Shown here: piece after piece, positions 1,865 to 30,462 of the stretch | Layout: each line of letters opens with the position of its first letter | Position numbering within the stretch: the stretch's first letter is position 1 | Source: a phage | Sequence record: OZ335959.1 | Reading direction: 5' to 3' (one strand) | DNA: 64,000 nucleotides | Translations under genes and position numbers: made by a program | Notes under the pieces: generated by a model | The model's input: only the letters and a program-made list of their open reading frames with translations | The model's database searches: none | Told to the model about the DNA's origin: nothing

Positions 1865-3844
1865 ATGACTTTATTATCTCCGGGCATTGAGCTCAAAGAA
1901 ACTACGGTTCAAAGCACCGTGGTTAATAACTCTACTGGTACAGCAGCTTTGGCCGGTAAATTCCAGTGGGGTCCTGCTTTTCAAATTAAACAGGTTACAA
2001 ATGAAGTAGATTTAGTTAATACTTTTGGTCAACCTACAGCTGAAACTGCTGACTATTTTATGTCTGCAATGAATTTCTTACAATACGGAAATGATTTGCG
2101 AGTTGTGCGTGCTGTCGATAGAGATACCGCTAAAAACTCATCTCCGATTGCCGGTAATATTGAATACACTATTTCTACCCCAGGTAGTAACTACGCGGTT
2201 GGAGATAAAATCACGGTTAAGTATGTTTCAGAAGATGTTGAAACAGAATGTAAAGTTACCGAAGTAGATGCTGATGGAAAAATTAAGAAAATTAATATTC
2301 CTACCGCAAAAATTATCGCTAAAGCGAAAGAAGTAGGCGAATATCCAGCATTAGGTTCTAACTGGACCGCGGAAATTTCTTCGTCTTCCTCTGGTTTAGC
2401 TGCAGTAATAACTCTTGGAAAAATTATTACTGATTCTGGTATTTTATTAGCTGAAATTGAAAATGCTGAAGCTGCTATGACAGCTGTTGACTTTCAAGCA
2501 AATCTCGAAAAATATGGAATTCCAGGAGTAGTAGCTCTTTATCCAGGCGAGTTGGGCGATAAAATCGAAATTGAAATCGTATCTAAAGCTGACTACGCAA
2601 AAGGTGCTTCTGCATTACTTCCAATTTATCCAGGTGGCGGAACACGCGCATCTACTGCCAAAGCAGTGTTTGGATATGGACCACAAACTGATTCACAATA
2701 CGCTATTATAGTTCGTCGCAACGATGCTATTGTTCAAAGCGTTGTTCTTTCGACAAAGCGAGGTGAAAAAGATATTTACGATAGTAACATCTATATTGAT
2801 GACTTTTTCGCAAAAGGTGGTTCAGAATATATTTTCGCAACTGCACAAAACTGGCCAGAAGGCTTCTCTGGAATTTTAACTCTGTCTGGTGGATTATCAT
2901 CAAATGCTGAAGTAACAGCAGGAGATTTGATGGAAGCTTGGGACTTCTTTGCTGACCGTGAATCTGTTGATGTTCAGTTGTTTATTGCGGGTTCTTGTGC
3001 CGGTGAATCTTTAGAAACAGCATCTACTGTCCAAAAACACGTCGTTTCAATTGGGGATGCTCGCCAAGATTGCTTAGTACTGTGCTCGCCACCGCGTGAA
3101 ACTGTAGTTGGAATTCCTGTAACTCGTGCTGTTGATAACTTAGTCAATTGGAGAACTGCAGCAGGTTCATACACTGATAATAACTTTAATATCAGTTCAA
3201 CCTATGCAGCAATTGATGGTAACTACAAATATCAGTATGACAAATATAATGATGTAAATCGTTGGGTTCCATTAGCAGCTGATATTGCCGGTTTATGTGC
3301 AAGAACCGATAACATTTCTCAGACTTGGATGTCTCCAGCTGGTTATAATCGTGGCCAGATTCTTAACGTTATTAAACTTGCTATTGAAACTCGTCAGGCG
3401 CAGCGCGACCGTTTATATCAAGAAGCTATCAACCCAGTAACTGGTACAGGTGGTGATGGTTACGTATTGTATGGTGATAAAACAGCTACTTCTGTTCCTT
3501 CTCCATTTGATCGTATTAACGTTCGTCGTCTGTTTAATATGTTGAAAACGAATATCGGACGTAGTTCAAAATATCGTTTGTTCGAATTAAACAACGCGTT
3601 TACTCGTTCATCGTTCCGCACAGAAACTTCCCAGTACTTGCAGGGAATTAAAGCTCTCGGTGGAATTTATGAATATCGTGTAGTTTGCGATACAACAAAT
3701 AACACTCCGTCAGTAATTGATAGAAATGAGTTTGTTGCAACATTCTACATCCAACCGGCGCGCAGTATAAATTATATTACTTTGAATTTCGTCGCAACTG
3801 CTACTGGTGCAGACTTCGATGAGTTAACTGGTCTTGCAGGTTAA
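1865..3844 (+). CDS. 18: Contractile tail sheath protein, 659 aa
   Basis: N-terminus MTLLSPGIELKETTVQ and length match T4 gp18; GAGG ribosome-binding site upstream. Confidence 0.95.
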   Translation: MTLLSPGIELKETTVQSTVVNNSTGTAALAGKFQWGPAFQIKQVTNEVDLVNTFGQPTAETADYFMSAMNFLQYGNDLRVVRAVDRDTAKNSSPIAGNIEYTISTPGSNYAVGDKITVKYVSEDVETECKVTEVDADGKIKKINIPTAKIIAKAKEVGEYPALGSNWTAEISSSSSGLAAVITLGKIITDSGILLAEIENAEAAMTAVDFQANLEKYGIPGVVALYPGELGDKIEIEIVSKADYAKGASALLPIYPGGGTRASTAKAVFGYGPQTDSQYAIIVRRNDAIVQSVVLSTKRGEKDIYDSNIYIDDFFAKGGSEYIFATAQNWPEGFSGILTLSGGLSSNAEVTAGDLMEAWDFFADRESVDVQLFIAGSCAGESLETASTVQKHVVSIGDARQDCLVLCSPPRETVVGIPVTRAVDNLVNWRTAAGSYTDNNFNISSTYAAIDGNYKYQYDKYNDVNRWVPLAADIAGLCARTDNISQTWMSPAGYNRGQILNVIKLAIETRQAQRDRLYQEAINPVTGTGGDGYVLYGDKTATSVPSPFDRINVRRLFNMLKTNIGRSSKYRLFELNNAFTRSSFRTETSQYLQGIKALGGIYEYRVVCDTTNNTPSVIDRNEFVATFYIQPARSINYITLNFVATATGADFDELTGLAG

Positions 3845-3852
3845 TTGATTAT

Positions 3853-3866
3853 GGGGCTTCGGCCCC
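3853..3866 (+). terminator. GC hairpin GGGGC-UUCG-GCCCC immediately after gene 18 (RNA stability element or weak terminator)
   Basis: Perfect 5-bp GC stem with UUCG tetraloop. Confidence 0.5.
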
Positions 3867-3883
3867 TATTCTCGAGGAAACAA

Positions 3884-4501
3884 GTGATTATTTCTAAGTT
3901 TGTTAAAGTGAAAATTGTACCATCAAATTTTAAACATTATCAATCAAAGGGTTATAAATTAACACCTCTTGGAGCGGTTAAACATGGATTTAGGTATTAT
4001 GATATTGATGTTAAAGTTGAAGACATTAAAGGTAATACCGCGTATGTAAAATGCCGTTGCGATAAATGTGGAATTGAATATAACCAACGCATTGGAAGAA
4101 ACACTGATATTTGTCGTGATTGCCGTCATAAAGATAAAATGCGCAATAATTCATATGGTTCCGCGAATAAAGGAAAAACAGTAGAATGTATGCATGGCGT
4201 AAATCATCCAAGATGGAACCCAAATAAATCTGAAATGCGTGAATATATTTCATTGGTATATAAAGAAACTCGTAAGCATAAGAAAATTTGGTCAAAATGG
4301 CCAAATGCTGATAAAATAGGAGTGTGCGGTACAAAAGGTGCTTACCAACTTGATCATAAGGTATCTATCAAATACGGTTTTGATAATTTAATTCCTGCTG
4401 AAATAATTGGCGGTATTAATAATTTAGAAATAATCACTTGGGAATCTAACCGAGAAAAATCAAAAAGAAATAGTGTAGATCTTTGGGATTTACTAGAATG
4501 A
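3884..4501 (+). CDS. HNH-family (HNH_3-like) endonuclease-like protein with N-terminal Cys4 zinc-ribbon-like motif, about 205 aa; start uncertain (GTG 3884 with GAGGAA RBS, or ATG 3851)
   Basis: C-terminal LDHKVS...GGINNLEIITWESNREKSKRN resembles the HNH_3 motif; CRCDKCG...CRDCRH Cys pairs; the ORF-track TTG start at 3845 reads through a GC hairpin. Confidence 0.6.
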   Translation: MIISKFVKVKIVPSNFKHYQSKGYKLTPLGAVKHGFRYYDIDVKVEDIKGNTAYVKCRCDKCGIEYNQRIGRNTDICRDCRHKDKMRNNSYGSANKGKTVECMHGVNHPRWNPNKSEMREYISLVYKETRKHKKIWSKWPNADKIGVCGTKGAYQLDHKVSIKYGFDNLIPAEIIGGINNLEIITWESNREKSKRNSVDLWDLLE

Positions 4502-4508
4502 TTCTAAA

Positions 4509-4526
4509 GGCCTGTTTCGGCAGGCC
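4509..4526 (+). terminator. Hairpin GGCCUG-UUUCGG-CAGGCC after the HNH ORF
   Basis: 6-bp stem. Confidence 0.45.
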
Positions 4527-4527
4527 A

Positions 4528-4535
4528 TATAAATA
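4528..4535 (+). promoter_or_regulatory. T4-type late promoter (TATAAATA) upstream of gene 19
   Basis: Exact TATAAATA. Confidence 0.5.
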
Positions 4536-4586
4536 CACTATATCCTTAATTCTTTAATTCTATATGCCCTAGGTTAAACACAGGGA

Positions 4587-4594
4587 TATAAATA
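4587..4594 (+). promoter_or_regulatory. T4-type late promoter (TATAAATA) upstream of gene 19
   Basis: Exact TATAAATA 15 nt before the ATG. Confidence 0.55.
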
Positions 4595-4608
4595 CTACAG
4601 AGGCTAAT

Positions 4609-5100
4609 ATGTTTGTAGATGATGTAACACGAGCGTTTGAATCTGGTGATTTTGCTCGACCTAACTTATTCCAAGTAGAAATTTCTTATCTTGGACAAAA
4701 TTTTACGTTTCAATGTAAAGCAACTGCTTTACCAGCTGGTATTGTAGAAAAAATTCCAGTCGGATTTATGAACCGTAAAATTAACGTAGCAGGCGATCGT
4801 ACATTCGATGACTGGACTATTACAGTAATGAACGATGAGGCACATGATGCTCGTCAGAAGTTTGTTGATTGGCAAAGCATTGCCGCTGGGCAGGGGAACG
4901 AAATTACTGGTGGAAAACCAGCAGAGTATAAAAAGAGCGCTATTGTTCGCCAATATGCTCGTGACGCTAAAACTGTAACAAAAGAAGTCGAAATTAAAGG
5001 CCTGTGGCCTACTAACGTGGGTGAACTTCAATTAGATTGGGATTCAAACAATGAAATCCAAACCTTTGAAGTAACTCTTGCTCTCGATTATTGGGAATAA
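4609..5100 (+). CDS. 19: Tail tube protein, 163 aa
   Basis: Matches recalled T4 gp19 sequence and length; late promoter motifs and RBS upstream. Confidence 0.95.
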   Translation: MFVDDVTRAFESGDFARPNLFQVEISYLGQNFTFQCKATALPAGIVEKIPVGFMNRKINVAGDRTFDDWTITVMNDEAHDARQKFVDWQSIAAGQGNEITGGKPAEYKKSAIVRQYARDAKTVTKEVEIKGLWPTNVGELQLDWDSNNEIQTFEVTLALDYWE

Positions 5101-5106
5101 AATGAA

Positions 5107-5122
5107 TGGGGAGAAATCCCCA
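5107..5122 (+). terminator. Hairpin UGGGGA-GAAA-UCCCCA after gene 19
   Basis: GNRA tetraloop. Confidence 0.45.
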
Positions 5123-5132
5123 TCCTGCTTAA

Positions 5133-6757
<1,625 letters not shown>

Positions 6758-6758
<1 letters not shown>

Positions 6759-7015
6759 TGGAAGGTTTAATTGAAGCTATTAAATCAAACGACCTCGTAG
6801 CCGCTCGTAAATTCTTTGCTGAAGCCATGGCTGCAAGAACGATTGATTTAATTAAAGAAGAAAAAATCGCTATCGCTCGTAATTTCTTAATCGAAGGTGA
6901 AGAACCTGATGATGAGGATGACGAAGACGAGGATGATGACGAAGATAGCGATGATAACGACGACAAAAAAGACAAAGACACTGACGAAGATGACGAAGAC
7001 GAGGATGATGAATAA
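6758..7015 (+). CDS. 67: Prohead core protein with acidic C-terminal tract, 85 aa
   Basis: Synteny between 20 and 68; D/E-rich tail; TAATG overlap with gene 20 stop. Confidence 0.85.
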
Positions 7016-7440
7016 TGCTTCTGATCCCTGAAACTCATGAATTAGTTCTCGAGAATGTCGAAGCACTTATTCCTGAAGCACAGGGTCGCTTTGACGAATT
7101 GTCTTCTGCTTTAAATAAAGACGATATAAATACAATTGTCGAGAATATGCTTGATGATGAAACTGATTTAGCGATTGCATTAGCTTCTATTAATGAAGAT
7201 ATGCCGCTAAACGAATTCATCGTTAAACATGTTTCTGCTCGTGGTGAAATTACACGTACTAAAGACCGCAAGACGCGTGAACGTAATGCATTTCAAACCA
7301 CCGGGCTGTCTAAAGCAAAACGTAGACAAATTGCTCGCAAAGCTACCAAAACGAAGATTGCCAATCCAGCAGGTCAATCTCGTGCTCAGCGTAAGCGTAA
7401 AAAAGCTCTTAAACGCCGTAAAGCATTAGGATTAAGCTAA
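7015..7440 (+). CDS. 68: Prohead core protein, 141 aa
   Basis: Synteny and size as in T4; basic C-terminus. Confidence 0.8.
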
Positions 7441-8078
7441 TGAATGAACCCCAATTACTAATTGAAACTTGGGGTCAACCTGGCGAAATTATTGATGGCG
7501 TGCCAATGCTTGAATCTCATGATGGAAAAGACCTAGGTTTAAAACCTGGTTTATACATCGAAGGAATATTCATGCAAGCGGAAGTCGTCAATAGAAATAA
7601 ACGTCTTTATCCAAAACGCATATTAGAAAAAGCGGTAAAAGACTATATCAATGAGCAAGTTTTAACTAAACAAGCTCTCGGAGAATTAAATCATCCTCCA
7701 CGCGCTAATGTTGACCCGATGCAAGCCGCTATCATTATAGAAGATATGTGGTGGAAAGGAAATGACGTATACGGACGAGCTCGTGTTATTGAAGGTGACC
7801 ATGGTCCTGGAGATAAATTAGCAGCTAATATTCGTGCCGGATGGATTCCAGGAGTTTCTTCTCGTGGATTAGGTTCATTGACTGACACAAATAAAGGTTA
7901 TCGTATCGTAAACGAAGGATTCAAATTAACTGTAGGTGTTGATGCAGTATGGGGTCCAAGTGCTCCAGATGCATGGGTAACTCCTAAGGAAATTACCGAA
8001 TCACAAACGGCGGAAGCCGATACAAGTGCCGATGACGCCTATATGGCTCTCGCAGAGGCCATGAAAAAAGCGTTATAA
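7440..8078 (+). CDS. 21: Prohead core protease, 212 aa
   Basis: Length and position match T4 gp21. Confidence 0.9.
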   Translation: MNEPQLLIETWGQPGEIIDGVPMLESHDGKDLGLKPGLYIEGIFMQAEVVNRNKRLYPKRILEKAVKDYINEQVLTKQALGELNHPPRANVDPMQAAIIIEDMWWKGNDVYGRARVIEGDHGPGDKLAANIRAGWIPGVSSRGLGSLTDTNKGYRIVNEGFKLTVGVDAVWGPSAPDAWVTPKEITESQTAEADTSADDAYMALAEAMKKAL

Positions 8079-8108
8079 ATATTATTATCTAAACAACAGG
8101 ACTACAAA

Positions 8109-8918
8109 ATGCTTAAAGAACAACTGATTGCTGAAGCGCAAAAAATTGATGCTTCCGTTGCTCTTGATAGTATTTTCGAATCAGTTAATATTTCTCCGGA
8201 AGCAAAAGAAACTTTCGGCACTGTATTCGAAGCTACCGTCAAGCAGCACGCCGTTAAATTAGCTGAATCTCATATCGCTAAAATTGCTGAAAAAGCAGAA
8301 GAAGAAGTAGAAAAAAATAAAGAAGAAGCCGAAGAAAAAGCTGAGAAGAAAATCGCTGAGCAAGCTTCTAAATTCATCGACCATCTTGCGAAAGAATGGC
8401 TCGCTGAAAATAAATTAGCAGTTGATAAAGGCATCAAAGCCGAACTGTTTGAATCCATGCTTGGTGGATTAAAAGAGCTCTTTGTTGAACACAACGTCGT
8501 TGTTCCAGAAGAATCAGTTGATGTTGTAGCTGAAATGGAAGAAGAGCTGCAAGAACATAAAGAAGAATCAGCTCGTCTGTTCGAAGAACTCAATATGCGC
8601 GACGCATATATCAATTATGTGCAGCGTGAAGTGGCATTGAGCGAAAGTACTAAAGATCTGACTGAGTCTCAAAAAGAAAAAGTCTCTGCTCTGGTCGAAG
8701 GTATGGATTATTCAGATGCATTCTCAAGTAAATTGAGTGCCATCGTAGAAATGGTGAAGAAGTCTAATAAAGATGAAAGCACTATTACTGAGGGTATAAA
8801 TACTCCTGATACTGAAGCAGCCGGACTGAATTTCGTCACTGAAGCTGTAGAAGATAAAACTGCACCTGGTGCAGAAGATATTGTAAGTGTATATGCGAAA
8901 GTCGCATCTCGTTTTTAA
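8109..8918 (+). CDS. 22: Prohead core scaffold protein, 269 aa
   Basis: Acidic coiled-coil-rich protein; length and position match T4 gp22. Confidence 0.9.
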   Translation: MLKEQLIAEAQKIDASVALDSIFESVNISPEAKETFGTVFEATVKQHAVKLAESHIAKIAEKAEEEVEKNKEEAEEKAEKKIAEQASKFIDHLAKEWLAENKLAVDKGIKAELFESMLGGLKELFVEHNVVVPEESVDVVAEMEEELQEHKEESARLFEELNMRDAYINYVQREVALSESTKDLTESQKEKVSALVEGMDYSDAFSSKLSAIVEMVKKSNKDESTITEGINTPDTEAAGLNFVTEAVEDKTAPGAEDIVSVYAKVASRF

Positions 8919-25687: not shown

Positions 25688-25691
25688 CAAT

Positions 25692-25721
25692 GGGGACCTT
25701 TTGGTCCCCATATTTTTATTT
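25692..25721. terminator. Bidirectional terminator between gene 54 (+) and the alt.-3 ORF (-)
   Basis: GGGGACC-UUUU-GGUCCCC followed by ATATTTTTATTT. Confidence 0.65.
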
Positions 25722-26006
25722 ACGGAATGAAATAAAAGCAGCAACTGAAGCAACTAAACTGTCTTCAGTATAAACTTCAATTTTTACCGGAGCTTCTGAC
25801 TCGAATTTACCTGTTACTACACCTTGGAAAATGCTTTCAGTCTGTTCTGGCTTTGAAAAATTTTCAGAAGGAAAAATTCCGAACTTTTTATCTGTTCCAA
25901 AAATTTTGATAAATTCATCGTAAACCGCTTCATTAAAAGCGTTATCAGCAGGAATAACGCCTTCAACTACAAGTTCTTGACCTAAAAAGCGTAAAGAAGA
26001 TTTCAT
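25716..26006 (-). CDS. Hypothetical protein (T4 alt.-3 position), 96 aa
   Basis: ATG start with GAGGAA RBS; early promoter upstream. Confidence 0.6.
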   Translation of the reverse strand: MKSSLRFLGQELVVEGVIPADNAFNEAVYDEFIKIFGTDKKFGIFPSENFSKPEQTESIFQGVVTGKFESEAPVKIEVYTEDSLVASVAAFISFRK

Positions 26007-26037: not shown

Positions 26038-26067
26038 ATTATAACACAACACGATGGACTTGTAAAC
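26038..26067 (-). promoter_or_regulatory. T4 early-type promoter (GTTTAC, 18 nt, TATAAT) for the alt.-3 ORF; near-identical copy at 41542..41571
   Basis: -35 GTTTAC and -10 TATAAT on the minus strand; about 50 of 53 nt identical to the alc promoter and leader. Confidence 0.55.
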
Positions 26068-28124
26068 TACATCTTGAACTTTTTAGACATTCCATTGATG
26101 TTAACCAAAGAAGCCAAGATTTGAGAAACTTCGTTTTCCTCTTCTTTTGATTCTTCTACAAGGAATTGATTAAACCCAGCCATTGGACGAACTTCCCCAG
26201 TTTCCATTAGATGATCGCCATCATATACCGATTCTTCTAATTGTTCAGAAGGAGGAACGATTGTGCCTTCTATTAGATACTTGTTATAAGCAGTTTCTTT
26301 CATCATGTACGTGCTTACTTTATTAATCTTCAGCAAAATTCCACGCGGCAGAATAACTTCAGCTTCTGATGGAAATCCTGATAAATGACCTGGAACGATA
26401 ACTTTGATTCGCTCAGCCCCTTTAATTACCATACCTACGATAGTTTCATCATCTTCATTAGCATACGCAGAATGACTACCCATATGCATTAAATCTTCAG
26501 CATCAACAGAACCTTCTCCTTCACCAGAAAATACTGCACCTGAATCATCTAGAGCCATATAGTTTTTACCATGCTCACCGAAGATATTTGGTTTAAGCGA
26601 TGTTGATACGAAGTTCTTAAAATAGAACATTTTATTTTCAATATTATGACGTAAAGTTTTAAAAGTAACTTCTTGCCCACGATAAAGCGTAGTTCCTGGA
26701 GGAAGAACTGATCCTTTGGCGAATGCAGAATCCAGCGTCTCGATGTGTTTAATAGCTCGTTCCATGTATTCTTCACGGGTAGAATCTGGTTTACCCAAGA
26801 GGAACGAGTTCATTTCAACATATGAATCTGCACAATAATCTTCAATTACATCAGACTCAGCCTGAGTTAATCCTTTTGGAGTTACTTCGGTGCTTGCGTA
26901 TTCATATGCCTGAGCAGCAGATTCATTAATCAATTTATAAATGCCATTCATGACAAATCGAATAATAGCTGCCTTTTCGTCTGGTGTGGCTTTAGAACCT
27001 TTAACTAAATCATTGATAATTTTCTTAATAACATCAAAGCTATTAGAAATATTAATGTCAGCGAGATCGCTCAAAATTTTATCGGTTTTATAATCAAAAA
27101 ATTCTTTATTCTTTAAATATTCTTGAGAACCTTGATGTGTTATATCGCTCTGCAGTCTGATAGACGGATCACGTAAACGTGCATGGGCCAATGCAATATC
27201 ATTTCGGAAGCTTTCTAGTTCATAATCGTTAGATTTAAAACGAGAAGCACTTCTCATACCACCGATAGCTCCTTTGCCGAAGTTTGAACCAATCTGAATA
27301 ACGCCAGAGTTCATTGGTCCTTCTGCTTTATATACCGGAACTTTAGATTCAAACTCTTGATATTTCTTAGCAGCGAAGCTATCGCCCTGGAGTGAAGCAT
27401 CGACAGTAGAATATTGAGCTTGTGCTGCCAATCGACGACTAATTTTAGTTTTCTGAATAACAGCTTGATCCGTGCGCTTATCATTTTCTAAAGCAATAGA
27501 AGCGGCAACAGCAACAGCTTTAGGAACAGCATTACCTGTTTTAACATCTACATAAACATCACCAACCTTTGATTCAACTTTTGTGAATAACTCAGTTGAA
27601 ATAGGAGGTACACCTGGAATGTCTTCTAAATTGGCATTTTTACGGTAAACCATAATATATGCATACTTTTTATCATAATCCCAGATTTCCTTTAAAAGAA
27701 CATATCGACCTGCTCCTTTAGTACGTACTAAACGGTCAGCAATAACTTGCATTTGACGAGCTGCGCCATTTGTTTTACTTTTTAGTACGCGGAATAGGCA
27801 TGCATCAATTTTATACTGTTTCATTGTTTGAAGAGCAGTATCAAAAACGGCATTAATGACACCAATTGGATTTCCACCCAAGTTTTTAAGTTTAACTAAT
27901 GATAGTTTCTCATTAACACCTATCATTACGATATGCATCATTTTATCGCCTGGCTTAACGTTTTTATTTGTATCACCACCAGAGGTGTATGTACAAAATC
28001 TAAATCCAGGAAGCACGCTTTCTTCACCGGCTTGAATAGCAAAAATTTGAGGTATTTTATGCTTAGGATTTAAGTTAACAACCGGCGCCGAAGCGCCGTC
28101 AAATAATTCTGTAATAAGTTCCAT
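26067..28124 (-). CDS. Alt-like ADP-ribosyltransferase paralog, 685 aa
   Basis: N-terminus MELITELFDG shared with alt; C-terminal R/STS/E triad (YRGQ, FVSTSL, EAEVILPRG). Confidence 0.8.
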   Translation of the reverse strand: MELITELFDGASAPVVNLNPKHKIPQIFAIQAGEESVLPGFRFCTYTSGGDTNKNVKPGDKMMHIVMIGVNEKLSLVKLKNLGGNPIGVINAVFDTALQTMKQYKIDACLFRVLKSKTNGAARQMQVIADRLVRTKGAGRYVLLKEIWDYDKKYAYIMVYRKNANLEDIPGVPPISTELFTKVESKVGDVYVDVKTGNAVPKAVAVAASIALENDKRTDQAVIQKTKISRRLAAQAQYSTVDASLQGDSFAAKKYQEFESKVPVYKAEGPMNSGVIQIGSNFGKGAIGGMRSASRFKSNDYELESFRNDIALAHARLRDPSIRLQSDITHQGSQEYLKNKEFFDYKTDKILSDLADINISNSFDVIKKIINDLVKGSKATPDEKAAIIRFVMNGIYKLINESAAQAYEYASTEVTPKGLTQAESDVIEDYCADSYVEMNSFLLGKPDSTREEYMERAIKHIETLDSAFAKGSVLPPGTTLYRGQEVTFKTLRHNIENKMFYFKNFVSTSLKPNIFGEHGKNYMALDDSGAVFSGEGEGSVDAEDLMHMGSHSAYANEDDETIVGMVIKGAERIKVIVPGHLSGFPSEAEVILPRGILLKINKVSTYMMKETAYNKYLIEGTIVPPSEQLEESVYDGDHLMETGEVRPMAGFNQFLVEESKEEENEVSQILASLVNINGMSKKFKM

Positions 28125-28127
28125 GAT

Positions 28128-30221
28128 TTATCCTTGAACGAACTTGTAAGGCATGTTTGTAATATCTATGCAAGACGCAATAATTCCAAGAGATGATTCG
28201 ACTTTCTGTTTAACATTTGATGAAACAAATGATGCAAAATCAACTCTGTCTTCTATTTCAATATCACCTGTCATTGCAACTACTTCACCAGTTTCCATTA
28301 GACGGTCACCGTCATAAATTACTGATTCGGTGAGTTCTTCCGTAGTCATAACTTCAGCTTGAATGAGTTTTGTATTATTAGATGTTGTTCCGTCATTATT
28401 AGAAGCATCAGTTATTTTATTAACTTTGACCATCAATCCGCGTGGTAGAATAACTTCAGCTTCTGTTGCTATTCCGAGACTTCCTGGATATACAACATTA
28501 ACTTTATGAGCTCCATCAATTGCCCATCCTATTTGAACTTTAACGTATTCAGGATTTTCTTTATACGCTCTTATTTCATTTGGATTAATAGTTATTCCTT
28601 CTTCATTTTTATCAACTGTCAATTCATTACGAGCTTCTGGTTCTAAAAGACCAATACCAGCATGTGTAATTCCAAAACGTCCAAAAATGATAGGAGTTAA
28701 AGAAGTAGATACAAAATTTCTGAAATAGAACACTTTATTTTTAACTAGTGCTTCGTATATAGGAGCAGTCATACTTTGAGCACGATAAACTGTAATGCCT
28801 TCTGGTATACGGTCACCATTTTCAAAAGCTGAATCTAAGTTATTTATAGCAGATTCAATAGCCTTTTCATTCATTACATCATAGTTCTGAGGATTATAAC
28901 GTCCCAAAAGAAGATTATTGATGTCAGTATATCCTGAACCACAATACTCTCTAATGCCGCGCTTTTGTGATGGAGTATATTTAGAACCATCACGGGCAAT
29001 AGTAATATCAATCATTGGACCTGCACCAATTCCAGAAAAACTATAAATCATTCTTTTGAGGAATTTAGTTTTTGTTGCGTTCCAGGAATTTTTAGTTATT
29101 TCTTCCCAGACTTCATCTGGCTGTCCTTTACGTGTTTTATTATGTTTATCAAGCCAATTATCTTTATATTCTTCAAAGAGTTGATTAACGGCTGCTGCGT
29201 ATTTTTCTAAACATTTTATTGAAGTAGTTGGTTCATTTTTAATCGCATTAAGAATTACATCTTTAATTTTTTCAGAAACTTCATCAACTTCACTTTTTGA
29301 AAAGAATTTATAGTCATAGTGAAGTTCATCTGCAGTTCCTTCAGCAATAATTTTTGCTGCCTTAGTTTTAGAAGCTAATGAATTAATTCCAAGTTTCATT
29401 TCTTCTGCTTCGGGAATTAAAGGAGCGGTAGCAGGTTTATTGAAATTAGCTGCGGTAGATTCATACTTCTGGAATAATTCACTTTCAAATCTAGAAGATT
29501 CTAATGATTGACTTTGTGCAATTGCTCTACGGGAAATTTTAACTTTAACGATTACAGCTTGGTCAGAACGTTTATCGTTTTCTTGCGCAATAGATGCTGC
29601 AATGGCCTCATTTTTAGTTACTTGAGCTCCGGTATCTTTATTGATATAAACATCGCCGACCTTCGATTCAACTTTAGTAAAGAGCTCTGTACTAATTTCC
29701 GGAACTCCTGGAATGTCTTCTAATGATACATTTTTGCGATGTATAAGAATATATGCGTACTTTTTATCGTAATCCCAGAGTTCCTTAAGAAGGACGTATC
29801 TGCCACCTGAACGACTGCGGATAAGTCTATCAGCAATAAGTTGAATTTGACGAGCTTGACCAGCAGTTTTAGACTTAAGAATACGGAGCATACAGGCATC
29901 AATTTTATACTGACGCATCGTTTGCATTGCAACAGTAAAAACTGAATTGATGTAATTAATTGGGCTTGGACCGAGACCTTTTAATTTAGCAATTGAACCT
30001 TTAGCAGTTAATGTAAAAGGAACAATATGCATCATTTTATCGCCCATCTTTAAATCGCGATTAGTATCACCTCCAGATGTATAGGTACACAAACGAAAGC
30101 CTGGTTGTTCAATTGCGTCATCAACATGAACTGAAAAAATTTGCGGTATTTTCTTCTTTGGATTTAAGTTTGTAATCGGAAGAGTAGTATCTTCGTCAAA
30201 TAATTCTGTAATGAGTTCCAT
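28128..30221 (-). CDS. alt: Alt ADP-ribosyltransferase (capsid-packaged), about 697 aa
   Basis: Closely matches recalled T4 Alt ends; R/STS/E motifs; second ATG chosen for RBS spacing. Confidence 0.85.
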   Translation of the reverse strand: MELITELFDEDTTLPITNLNPKKKIPQIFSVHVDDAIEQPGFRLCTYTSGGDTNRDLKMGDKMMHIVPFTLTAKGSIAKLKGLGPSPINYINSVFTVAMQTMRQYKIDACMLRILKSKTAGQARQIQLIADRLIRSRSGGRYVLLKELWDYDKKYAYILIHRKNVSLEDIPGVPEISTELFTKVESKVGDVYINKDTGAQVTKNEAIAASIAQENDKRSDQAVIVKVKISRRAIAQSQSLESSRFESELFQKYESTAANFNKPATAPLIPEAEEMKLGINSLASKTKAAKIIAEGTADELHYDYKFFSKSEVDEVSEKIKDVILNAIKNEPTTSIKCLEKYAAAVNQLFEEYKDNWLDKHNKTRKGQPDEVWEEITKNSWNATKTKFLKRMIYSFSGIGAGPMIDITIARDGSKYTPSQKRGIREYCGSGYTDINNLLLGRYNPQNYDVMNEKAIESAINNLDSAFENGDRIPEGITVYRAQSMTAPIYEALVKNKVFYFRNFVSTSLTPIIFGRFGITHAGIGLLEPEARNELTVDKNEEGITINPNEIRAYKENPEYVKVQIGWAIDGAHKVNVVYPGSLGIATEAEVILPRGLMVKVNKITDASNNDGTTSNNTKLIQAEVMTTEELTESVIYDGDRLMETGEVVAMTGDIEIEDRVDFASFVSSNVKQKVESSLGIIASCIDITNMPYKFVQG

Positions 30222-30273
30222 CATATCCTCTCTAGTGTTTATTCTATTTATAAAATTAAAGGCCCGAAGGCCT

Positions 30274-30462
30274 TTAATAATCTATTGGTAAGAGAGTACG
30301 ATATATTTCAAACTTTGGACCTTTTTCATAGGTATCAAATGTTTCTGTGAATTTATTATAAGCATATGCATCTATAAATTCAATCATAATTTGTGATACA
30401 GAAGTAGAAACATCTCCACCTTCTTTTTGAGCCACGACAATTGTTTCTAAGTAAGCTTTCAT
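30274..30462 (-). CDS. Hypothetical protein, 62 aa
   Basis: ATGA overlap with ligase stop. Confidence 0.5.
   Translation of the reverse strand: MKAYLETIVVAQKEGGDVSTSVSQIMIEFIDAYAYNKFTETFDTYEKGPKFEIYRTLLPIDY

Follow-up and report, generated by a model that had tools for sequence, protein, structure and literature searches.

The analysed window, a 64,000-nt stretch of phage DNA (OZ335959.1), derives from a T-even phage of the genus Tequatrovirus. Its genes follow the order 30 (ligase), alt.1, alt, alt paralog, alt.-3, 54 and 48, and the slot between gene 30/alt.1 and alt.-3/gene 54 matches by synteny that of T4, RB14, T2 and IME341. The DNA of the locus is 97-98% identical to many Tequatrovirus genomes in which two Alt genes are annotated. 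Coordinates below are those of the window, and all features lie on the minus strand unless stated otherwise.

Gene and regulatory content of the alt locus

The original prediction described two tandem minus-strand open reading frames of 685 and about 697 aa, and the ORF list contains both. The upstream gene (28128..30221, 697 aa) is an alt ortholog of a non-T4 allele and the downstream gene (26067..28124, 685 aa) is a full-length alt paralog, each identified by ORF, BLASTP, Pfam and PHROG evidence; 3 nt separate the alt stop codon from the paralog start. The upstream frame is open to 28128..30224 (698 aa) if counted from the first of two adjacent ATGs. This start at 30224 was set aside in favor of the second ATG at 30221, which is the start annotated in T4 and follows the ribosome binding site GAGG (30227-30230) by 5 nt. 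The downstream neighbor alt.-3 (25716..26006) encodes a 96-aa DUF5498 protein which is not an ADP-ribosyltransferase (ART).

Read directly from the sequence, a terminator-like element closes alt.1 on the upstream side of alt (30258..30275): a GC-rich hairpin, AAAGGCCTTCGGGCCTTT, and then a T-rich run. The element is also present in T4, and a terminator is annotated at the equivalent place in phage G50; the AAAGGCCTTCGGGCCTTT hairpin was not flagged by a simple terminator scan. A conserved terminator upstream of alt was reported by Nolan et al. 2006 (PMC1524935). The start codon of alt is preceded at 24 nt by a candidate promoter, TATAAATA (30245..30252), an exact match to the T4 late-promoter consensus; 18 such octamers occur in the whole window against 8.5 expected. 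The paralog has its own ribosome binding site, AAGGA (28131..28135), located inside the last alt codons and 6 nt before the ATG at 28124. Because the scan found no terminator-like site on the minus strand between alt and the paralog, both genes may be read as a single bicistronic late message from TATAAATA, with the elements themselves seen and their function presumed. A second TATAAATA within alt (28841-28848) was considered as a separate promoter for the paralog and rejected, since these letters code for A-I-N and neither phage G50 nor the T4-type alleles preserve the octamer. A strong sigma-70-type, early-promoter-like site (26038..26066) directly follows the paralog stop codon and precedes alt.-3; it consists of TTTACA-17-TATAAT with an upstream TG and matches 11 of 12 consensus positions, and the T4 version has TATAGT. 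The alt transcription unit likely ends at a bidirectional terminator hairpin (25690..25711, both strands) that separates alt.-3 from gene 54; it was found by the scan and is annotated as a terminator in G50.

Sequence and predicted structure of the two Alt proteins

By pairwise BLASTP, the 697-aa and 685-aa proteins are paralogs with 41% identity over their full length (E 3e-161), a score which rules out chance. Both contain PF03496 ADPrib_exo_Tox (E 1.7e-37 for the 697-aa and 4.5e-20 for the 685-aa protein), as expected of the diverged alt-type pair proposed originally, and both match PHROG 802 "Alt-like RNA polymerase ADP-ribosyltransferase" from end to end. The proposed common N-terminus, MELITELFD, was seen in both translations, and identity between the paralogs is 68% in the N-terminal module (residues 1-238), 35% in the ART domain and 46% in the C-terminal tail. 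The centre (239-415) is just 18% identical, in line with the strong central divergence noticed at the outset. The stretch inserted between STS and ExE varies, and the two enzymes differ in the residues preceding ExE. In precomputed Pfam annotation, PF26846 Tevenvirinae_ADPRT and PF03496 occur together in all listed full-length homologs, including the 99%-identical P0001; PF26846 was not reported by our local Pfam search of the window proteins. NCBIfam and PADLOC gave no match for either Alt protein or alt.-3.

The catalytic residues of the alt ortholog are R480 (28782-28784), S505-T-S507 (28701-28709) and E587-A-E589 (28455-28463), and those of the paralog are R482 (26679-26681), S507-T-S509 (26598-26606) and E587-A-E589 (26358-26366). 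An ExE motif is the mark of arginine-specific enzymes. In a 17-sequence family alignment, R482, S507, S509, E587, E589, E6 and E631 (paralog numbering) are invariant; the R/STS/E triad is thus retained by both proteins as first suggested, and neither copy shows loss of catalytic residues in the alignment. Mutation of an ExE glutamate inactivates T4 Alt (PMC11404850). On these sequence features, both large genes appear to encode Alt-family NAD+:arginine mono-ADP-ribosyltransferases of the R-S-ExE class, and the pair is read as two full-length, apparently intact Alt-type genes.

T4 Alt is cut at ITE-6 and LTE-619 to yield a mature protein of 68.2 kDa (PMC5694885, PMC9026906), and the mass we computed for its residues 7-619 is 68.245 kDa. 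The N-terminal I-T-E, suggested earlier to fit the prohead protease motif, corresponds to this experimentally mapped gp21 site (PMC5694885) and is identical in both window proteins (ITE4-6; 30204-30212 in the alt ortholog, 28107-28115 in the paralog). The second gp21 site is also kept, as LTE630-632 in the alt ortholog (28326-28334) and LEE629-631 in the paralog (26232-26240), with an invariant P1 Glu. Since [LI]-x-E tripeptides are frequent, at 7-11 per protein, the motif alone proves nothing, and the argument is one of positional homology. By analogy with T4 Alt, we infer that gp21 cleaves both precursors at the homologous sites, removing six N-terminal residues after I-T-E6 and trimming the tail after L-T-E632 (alt ortholog) or L-E-E631 (paralog), which would leave mature proteins of ~70.1 and ~69.1 kDa, respectively.

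AlphaFold2 models built from shallow alignments of 17 sequences (pLDDT 75.9 and 72.0) predict a common four-part plan of an N-terminal alpha/beta module, a helical centre, an ART domain and a disordered C-terminal tail. The predicted ART domain resembles Vis, VIP2 and C3, and the ART fold of the paralog is predicted with confidence. Both centres are predicted to be all-helical and might thus represent a single function that is evolving rapidly. A PDB sequence search with the full-length paralog returned no match at E 0.01 or better; the ART domain alone gave weak VIP2 and Vis matches (E 0.025 and above), which were used solely for aligning R and ExE. Among the bacterial R-S-ExE toxins (Vis, VIP2, iota/CDTa, Certhrax) and C3 (QxE), the YR and ExE of VIP2 align with those of the paralog; however, sequence identity to these proteins is just 13-26%. 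In contrast to the toxins, the Alt proteins carry an insert of ~40 aa between STS and ExE, and phage-specific N-terminal and helical modules replace the toxin delivery domains. When the paralog centre (residues 239-418) was searched against 1.8 billion cluster representatives, no relatives outside Alt proteins were detectable beyond one weak match (E 2.6e-7, 24% identity) to seven stretches in a 1,088-aa protein, which gives no hint of a target.

The pair in T4 and other phages

T4 Alt is the textbook enzyme injected by a phage to reprogram its host; the alt gene is non-essential, and the textbook picture of T4 holds three ARTs, one of them injected. Alt is a head protein of ~40 copies that is injected (PMC5694885, PMC9026906); its substrates are RNAP alpha Arg265 and further proteins (PMC2988021). 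The T4 enzymes ModA and ModB are R-S-E ARTs of Alt's clade and are likewise host-takeover enzymes (PMC5512222, PMC10468400); unlike Alt, they are small early-gene products that are not packaged, and neither has the N-terminal Tevenvirinae_ADPRT module or the gp21 sites. ModB carries out RNAylation, the attachment of RNA chains, an activity that Alt shows just slightly in vitro (PMC10468400).

T4 Alt (NP_049811.1) occupies the same slot as the window alt, between alt.1 and alt.-3/gene 54, and has in common with both window proteins the four-part architecture, the MELITE N-terminus, a C-terminal L-x-E site and R/STS/ExE. The window alt product and T4 Alt are 72% identical overall; identity is highest at the ends (~99% over residues 1-240, 97% in the tail), drops to 50-70% in the ART domain and is lowest in the centre (14-36%). 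By this comparison the upstream gene is the T4 alt ortholog, its central and catalytic cassette being of another type. Overall identity to T4 Alt is lower for the 685-aa paralog, at 42-44%. In T4, the slot of the paralog contains two fragments, alt.-1 (NP_049810.1, 61 aa) and alt.-2 (NP_049809.1, 67 aa), which are 89-90% identical to paralog residues 1-55 and 62-117 versus 57% identical to T4 Alt. Alignment of the T4 and window DNA revealed a 1-bp deletion in an A-run that breaks the T4 frame, and 1,699 bp missing between two copies of the 9-bp direct repeat CTAAAAAGT, one at the left edge of the T4 deletion (27777..27785) and the other at its right edge (26078..26086). As judged from this alignment, the downstream window gene corresponds to T4 alt.-1 plus alt.-2 in full-length form, and T4 lost the paralog by the frameshift and by deletion between the repeats. 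The comparison shows alt.-1 and alt.-2 to be, at the sequence level, a deletion remnant of the full-length paralog, correcting the GenBank note, which has them as a duplicated first part of alt. The original prediction was unsure whether T4 holds an equivalent paralog; it does so in the same slot, only as this wreck.

Full-length orthologs of the paralog, counted at 80% identity or more, are present in about 403 phage records, including T2 and RB14, and the T4-type deletion is found in 91 records (T4 and 90 others). An intact paralog is the common state among Tequatroviruses. RB14 alt.-2 (YP_002854530.1) and T2 EcT2_00208 (BBF63359.1) are the same gene, at 685 aa and in the same position and orientation, and these and the other Tequatrovirus orthologs have 97-99% identity to the window paralog; many records name the orthologs "hypothetical protein". 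The pair is already known, with hundreds of GenBank records annotating it, and does not represent a new type of system. Duplications of alt were noted by Nolan et al. 2006 (PMC1524935), and we found no functional, biochemical or virion-proteomic study of the second copy in the literature searched.

A tandem pair also occurs in Dhakavirus vB_EcoM_IME341 (YP_010094750.1, YP_010094751.1), in the order ligase, alt.1, alt, second alt, alt.-3, 54. Its Alt proteins, of 694 and 707 aa, are longer and have diverged strongly, the first copy being 66% identical to the window alt product and the second 48% identical to the window paralog. The presence of the pair in Dhakavirus indicates that the duplication is older than the Tequatrovirus/Dhakavirus split. 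Across five phages, dN/dS was 0.04-0.07 and dS 0.13-0.26 for both genes, indicating that both are under strong purifying selection and that the paralog is functional. Contig L008 carries a single hybrid gene in the slot, which is Alt-type to residue 174 and paralog-type from residue 192; the paralog catalytic body can therefore be the sole Alt body of a phage. Among phages that are otherwise nearly identical, the alt ortholog itself comes in two very different alleles whose centres share 14-36% identity.

Proposed roles of the second Alt enzyme

Taken as a whole, these observations are probably best explained by tandem Alt enzymes which are both packaged and injected and which probably differ in part of their substrates. 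Precursors of ~76-78 kDa would enter the prohead core via the common basic N-terminal module of ~240 aa, a route suggested by its similarity to that of Alt (68% identity) and by the natural hybrid joining an Alt N-module to a paralog body. Both proteins would then be injected along with the DNA and modify host proteins by ADP-ribosylation at arginine. That the two enzymes act on partly different substrates is the most speculative step; it is made probable by the low identity of the centres, the variable STS-ExE insert and the differing residues before ExE. We are more tentative on whether the paralog is a second injected effector with host targets of its own, distinct from those of Alt, which we rate at somewhat less than an even chance. 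Such an effector might, for example, act on another set of proteins of transcription, translation or defence, or use a different ADP-ribose donor, for instance NAD-capped RNA.

The architecture, the catalytic residues and the arginine-specific ExE are the same in both proteins, and T4 is successful despite its loss of the paralog, as would be expected if the paralog were a redundant dosage copy. Such a copy would be packaged and injected like Alt, would act on the same main target, RNAP alpha Arg265, and would raise or secure the ART dose, with its divergence being neutral or driven by host evasion. A divergent centre need not mean a new function, since the alt alleles of near-identical phages have very different centres themselves. 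We nevertheless consider mere redundancy unlikely: the tandem pair has been kept since before the two genera split, dN/dS is low for each gene, and the paralog orthologs are 95-99% identical across ~400 records. Long retention under purifying selection is more easily explained if each copy does something that the other does not.

Late expression, apparent from the putative TATAAATA promoter, would also suit an unpackaged enzyme acting on host or phage proteins in the producing cell. The paralog nonetheless conserves with Alt the features of prohead-core cargo, namely the 240-aa N-module, ITE-6 and a C-terminal L-x-E with an invariant Glu, and a single natural gene joins the Alt N-module to the paralog body, all of which makes an intracellular role improbable. 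The deleted form in T4 and 90 other records indicates that the paralog is dispensable and might be taken as a sign of a pseudoenzyme or decaying gene, either a structural head part devoid of ART activity or one headed for loss as in T4. This we regard as very improbable given a frame that is intact in about 403 records, invariant R, STS and ExE, a dN/dS of about 0.05 and a confidently predicted ART fold.

Any function of the paralog is accessory, since T4 and the 90 other records do without it and Alt is non-essential. Most T4 relatives, including classical T2, have a conserved second Alt-type enzyme that T4 has lost; T4 is to this modest extent not fully representative of its genus in its set of injected enzymes. 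If the paralog is indeed a second effector, the picture of three ARTs with one injected under-describes what natural T-even phages, T2 among them, deliver at infection. T2 and RB14 are ready experimental systems for the paralog.

Organization and relatedness of the two genes

The ORF listing gave two adjacent minus-strand frames, a downstream one of 685 aa (26067..28124, hereafter the paralog) and an upstream one of 698 aa (28128..30224, the alt ortholog), the latter counted from the first of two adjacent ATGs. As in T4, alt opens with two in-frame start codons in succession (ATGATG, 30219-30224). The first ATG (30224) is disfavoured as the start, lying 2 nt from the GAGG versus 5 nt for the second (30221). 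Given this better spacing and the annotation of the T4 alt start at the second ATG, the alt ortholog is taken to be 697 aa (28128-30221), in agreement with the length originally estimated. Only 3 nt separate the alt ortholog from the paralog, and the AAGGA ribosome-binding site of the paralog is embedded in the final codons of the alt ortholog.

The original prediction described two tandem, diverged Alt-type ADP-ribosyltransferase (ART) genes with a common N-terminus, MELITELFD. This N-terminus is present in both proteins, and their pairwise alignment by BLASTP gave 41% identity over the full length (E 3e-161). Both also match the Pfam family PF03496, ADPrib_exo_Tox (paralog E 4.5e-20, alt ortholog E 1.7e-37), and PHROG 802, "Alt-like RNA polymerase ADP-ribosyltransferase", covers both from end to end, so that chance resemblance is excluded. 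Judged by their domains, catalytic residues, N-terminal module, synteny and putative cleavage positions, both genes belong to the Alt family.

The surrounding 5-kb locus is 97-98% identical at the DNA level to many Tequatrovirus phages of Escherichia, Shigella and Yersinia, and in 345 records a single match spans at least 80% of it. Many of these 345 records annotate two Alt genes, as alt_1/alt_2 or as alt and alt.-2. The neighbour order is that of T4: 48, 54, alt.-3 (DUF5498), the two ART genes, alt.1 (Phage_blade), the gene 30 DNA ligase and 30.1. Paralogous alt duplications, one of them full-length, have been noted in T4, RB49 and 44RR (Nolan et al. 2006, PMC1524935), and reviews count three T4 ARTs, one of which is injected (PMC10468400). 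Literature searches found no paper studying the second Alt copy. The gene pair is genuine, looks functional, is a normal feature of the genus and is of modest interest; public records already annotate it, and the literature already notes the duplication. What this analysis adds is small: it defines the T4 remnant precisely, shows the intact paralog to be in the majority, and describes a conserved second, C-terminal putative cleavage position, a hybrid gene and the allele structure of alt.

As read from the sequence, alt.1 ends in a hairpin (30258-30275), past which lies TATAAATA (30245-30252), an exact match to the T4 late-promoter consensus. A terminator scan found no terminator-like site on the coding strand between the alt ortholog and the paralog, and a bidirectional terminator at 25690-25711 closes the unit. 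The simplest reading is that both ARTs would be expressed from one late bicistronic message. Past the paralog, directly after its stop codon and ahead of alt.-3, is a strong sigma-70-type promoter (TTTACA-17-TATAAT with TG, 26038-26066), giving alt.-3 (25716-26006, 96 aa, DUF5498) a promoter of its own. In T4, mutants with a C-terminal extension of Alt.-3 escape CmdTAC defence, and wild-type Alt.-3 is without known function (PMC11618068). A second exact TATAAATA occurs inside alt (28841-28848, minus strand), 720 nt upstream of the paralog start, where it encodes Ala-Ile-Asn. It is kept in RB14, ECO07P5 and T2 and is probably fortuitous, since it is absent from G50 and from T4-type alleles.

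Predicted processing, fold and catalytic residues

T4 Alt is a prohead-core protein present at ~40 copies per head and injected with the DNA, and mass spectrometry showed that the prohead protease gp21 trims it by six residues at ITE-6 and by 63 at LTE-619 to yield a 68.2 kDa product (PMC5694885, PMC9026906). The computed mass of T4 Alt residues 7-619 is 68.245 kDa; for the length of the Alt propeptide, one review gives 7 residues and another 6. The N-terminal I-T-E that had been proposed to fit the protease motif corresponds in both copies to the mapped T4 Alt site, ITE-6. Together with a second, C-terminal site, this predicts a mature alt ortholog of residues 7-632 (70.1 kDa, cleaved at ITE-6 and LTE-632) and a mature paralog of residues 7-631 (69.1 kDa, cleaved at ITE-6 and LEE-631). 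As [LI]-x-E tripeptides are frequent, at 7-11 per protein, these assignments rest on position and conservation. By homology, both precursors would be processed by gp21 and packaged like T4 Alt.

AlphaFold2 models built on a shallow 17-sequence alignment (pLDDT 75.9 and pTM 0.69 for the paralog, pLDDT 72.0 and pTM 0.54 for the alt ortholog) share one plan. The first 10 residues are disordered and are followed by an N-terminal alpha/beta module up to ~residue 240, an all-helical centre (~248-415), an ART domain (~417-625) whose STS-ExE insert is modelled with low confidence, and a C-terminal tail whose disorder in both models fits the expectation for a propeptide. The N-terminal module is basic (pI ~9.6) and is the part best conserved between the paralogs, at 68% identity.

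The R/STS/E triad was likewise found in both copies: Arg482, Ser507, Ser509, Glu587 and Glu589 (685-aa numbering) are invariant in an alignment of 17 diverse family members, as are Glu6 and Glu631 at the putative cleavage sites. An alignment to VIP2, weak but consistent, places the paralog LYR on the VIP2 VYR and the paralog SEAE on the VIP2 SEKE. E-x-E, not Q-x-E, marks the arginine-specific enzymes of this class. The ExE of T4 Alt is E574/E576 in the RefSeq sequence, versus E577 in the numbering of a published study in which mutation of this ExE glutamate (E577A) abolished ADP-ribosylation (PMC11404850). Pairwise Nei-Gojobori comparisons among the window, RB14, ECO07P5, G50 and U115 gave dN/dS of 0.04-0.07 for the paralog, at dS of 0.13-0.26, and similar values for the alt ortholog in the same five phages. 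Both genes are under strong purifying selection.

The T4 remnant and the states of the locus

The original prediction was unsure whether T4 has an equivalent paralog in this slot; comparison with T4 alt and its neighbours showed that the same paralog is there as a remnant, alt.-1/alt.-2. In T4 (NC_000866), alt (682 aa) is followed by alt.-1 (61 aa), alt.-2 (67 aa) and alt.-3. The alt.-1 product aligns to paralog residues 1-55 and that of alt.-2 to residues 62-117, with 89% and 90% identity, respectively, to the window paralog and 57% each to T4 Alt. A GenBank note explains alt.-1 and alt.-2 as a duplication of the first part of alt. DNA alignment of the T4 and window loci showed almost identical flanks, between which one A is missing from an A-run in T4, breaking the frame and creating the alt.-1 stop, and a single clean block of 1,699 bp is absent from T4. 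In the window, this block is bounded by a 9-bp direct repeat, CTAAAAAGT (27777-27785 and 26078-26086). A frameshift and a 1,699-bp deletion in a full-length paralog rule out the GenBank explanation, and the DNA alignment, which leaves no ambiguity, and the identities together show that alt.-1 and alt.-2 are the wreck of that gene.

A tblastn search with the 685-aa protein recovered full-length orthologs of the paralog at ≥80% identity in ~403 phage records, nearly all of them 95-99% identical, with no match in the 60-80% range. Among them are RB14, whose record names the gene alt.-2 and describes the product as an Alt-like ART, and the classical phage T2, whose record lists it as "hypothetical protein". 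Of 500 matching records, 91 carried the T4-type deletion junction (T4 strains, RB55, RB59, SG1, vB_EcoM_112, G8 and others). With ~403 intact genes against these 91, the intact pair is the majority state and T4 is derived. The same tandem arrangement occurs in Dhakavirus vB_EcoM_IME341 (1945-6156 of its locus), where copies of 694 and 707 aa are flanked by alt.1 and alt.-3; the first shares 66% identity with the window alt, the second 48% with the window paralog. This argues that the duplication is older than the split between Tequatrovirus and Dhakavirus. Mosigvirus-like records appeared at one place only among the matches listed.

The metagenomic Logan contig SRR24155011_2765 carries between alt.1 and alt.-3 a single alt gene (5001-7055, 684 aa), in which the residues up to 174 are Alt-type and those from 192 onward paralog-type. 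This structure suggests a hybrid produced by a single, simple unequal crossover of the two neighbouring genes. Its existence indicates that the paralog catalytic body works, evolutionarily, behind an Alt N-terminal module and, as this is the one gene in the slot, that the paralog body can be the sole Alt body of a phage. The hybrid brings the locus to at least four states: the pair, the pair with a T4-type alt, alt with the remnant, and the hybrid.

Divergence, alt alleles and possible targets

The strong difference originally noted between the central regions of the two proteins amounts to 18% identity in the helical centre, and the ART domains are 35% identical. The STS-ExE inserts differ in length as well as in sequence, and the stretches leading into ExE read GFPSEAE (paralog), GIATEAE (alt ortholog) and APSNEME (T4 Alt); the corresponding GFASEKE of VIP2 resembles the paralog. 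In related toxins (C3-like enzymes), the stretch before ExE contributes to substrate choice. Because the centre, the insert and the pre-ExE residues all differ, it is plausible that the paralog and the alt ortholog have different targets. Caution is warranted, however, as the centres of alt orthologs themselves differ widely between alleles. T4 Alt (6455-8503 of the T4 locus) and the window alt are ~99% identical over residues 1-240 and ~97% over the last ~60, but 14-36% identical in the helical centre and 50-70% in the ART domain, a pattern that marks the window alt as a mosaic relative to T4 alt. Two alt allele classes exist in otherwise near-identical Tequatroviruses: ~321 records have the window type and ~212 the T4 type. 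Since the alt ortholog itself has two alleles, rapid cassette turnover is a general property of the locus. Phage U115 combines a T4-type alt with an intact paralog, indicating that alt alleles assort independently of the presence of the paralog.
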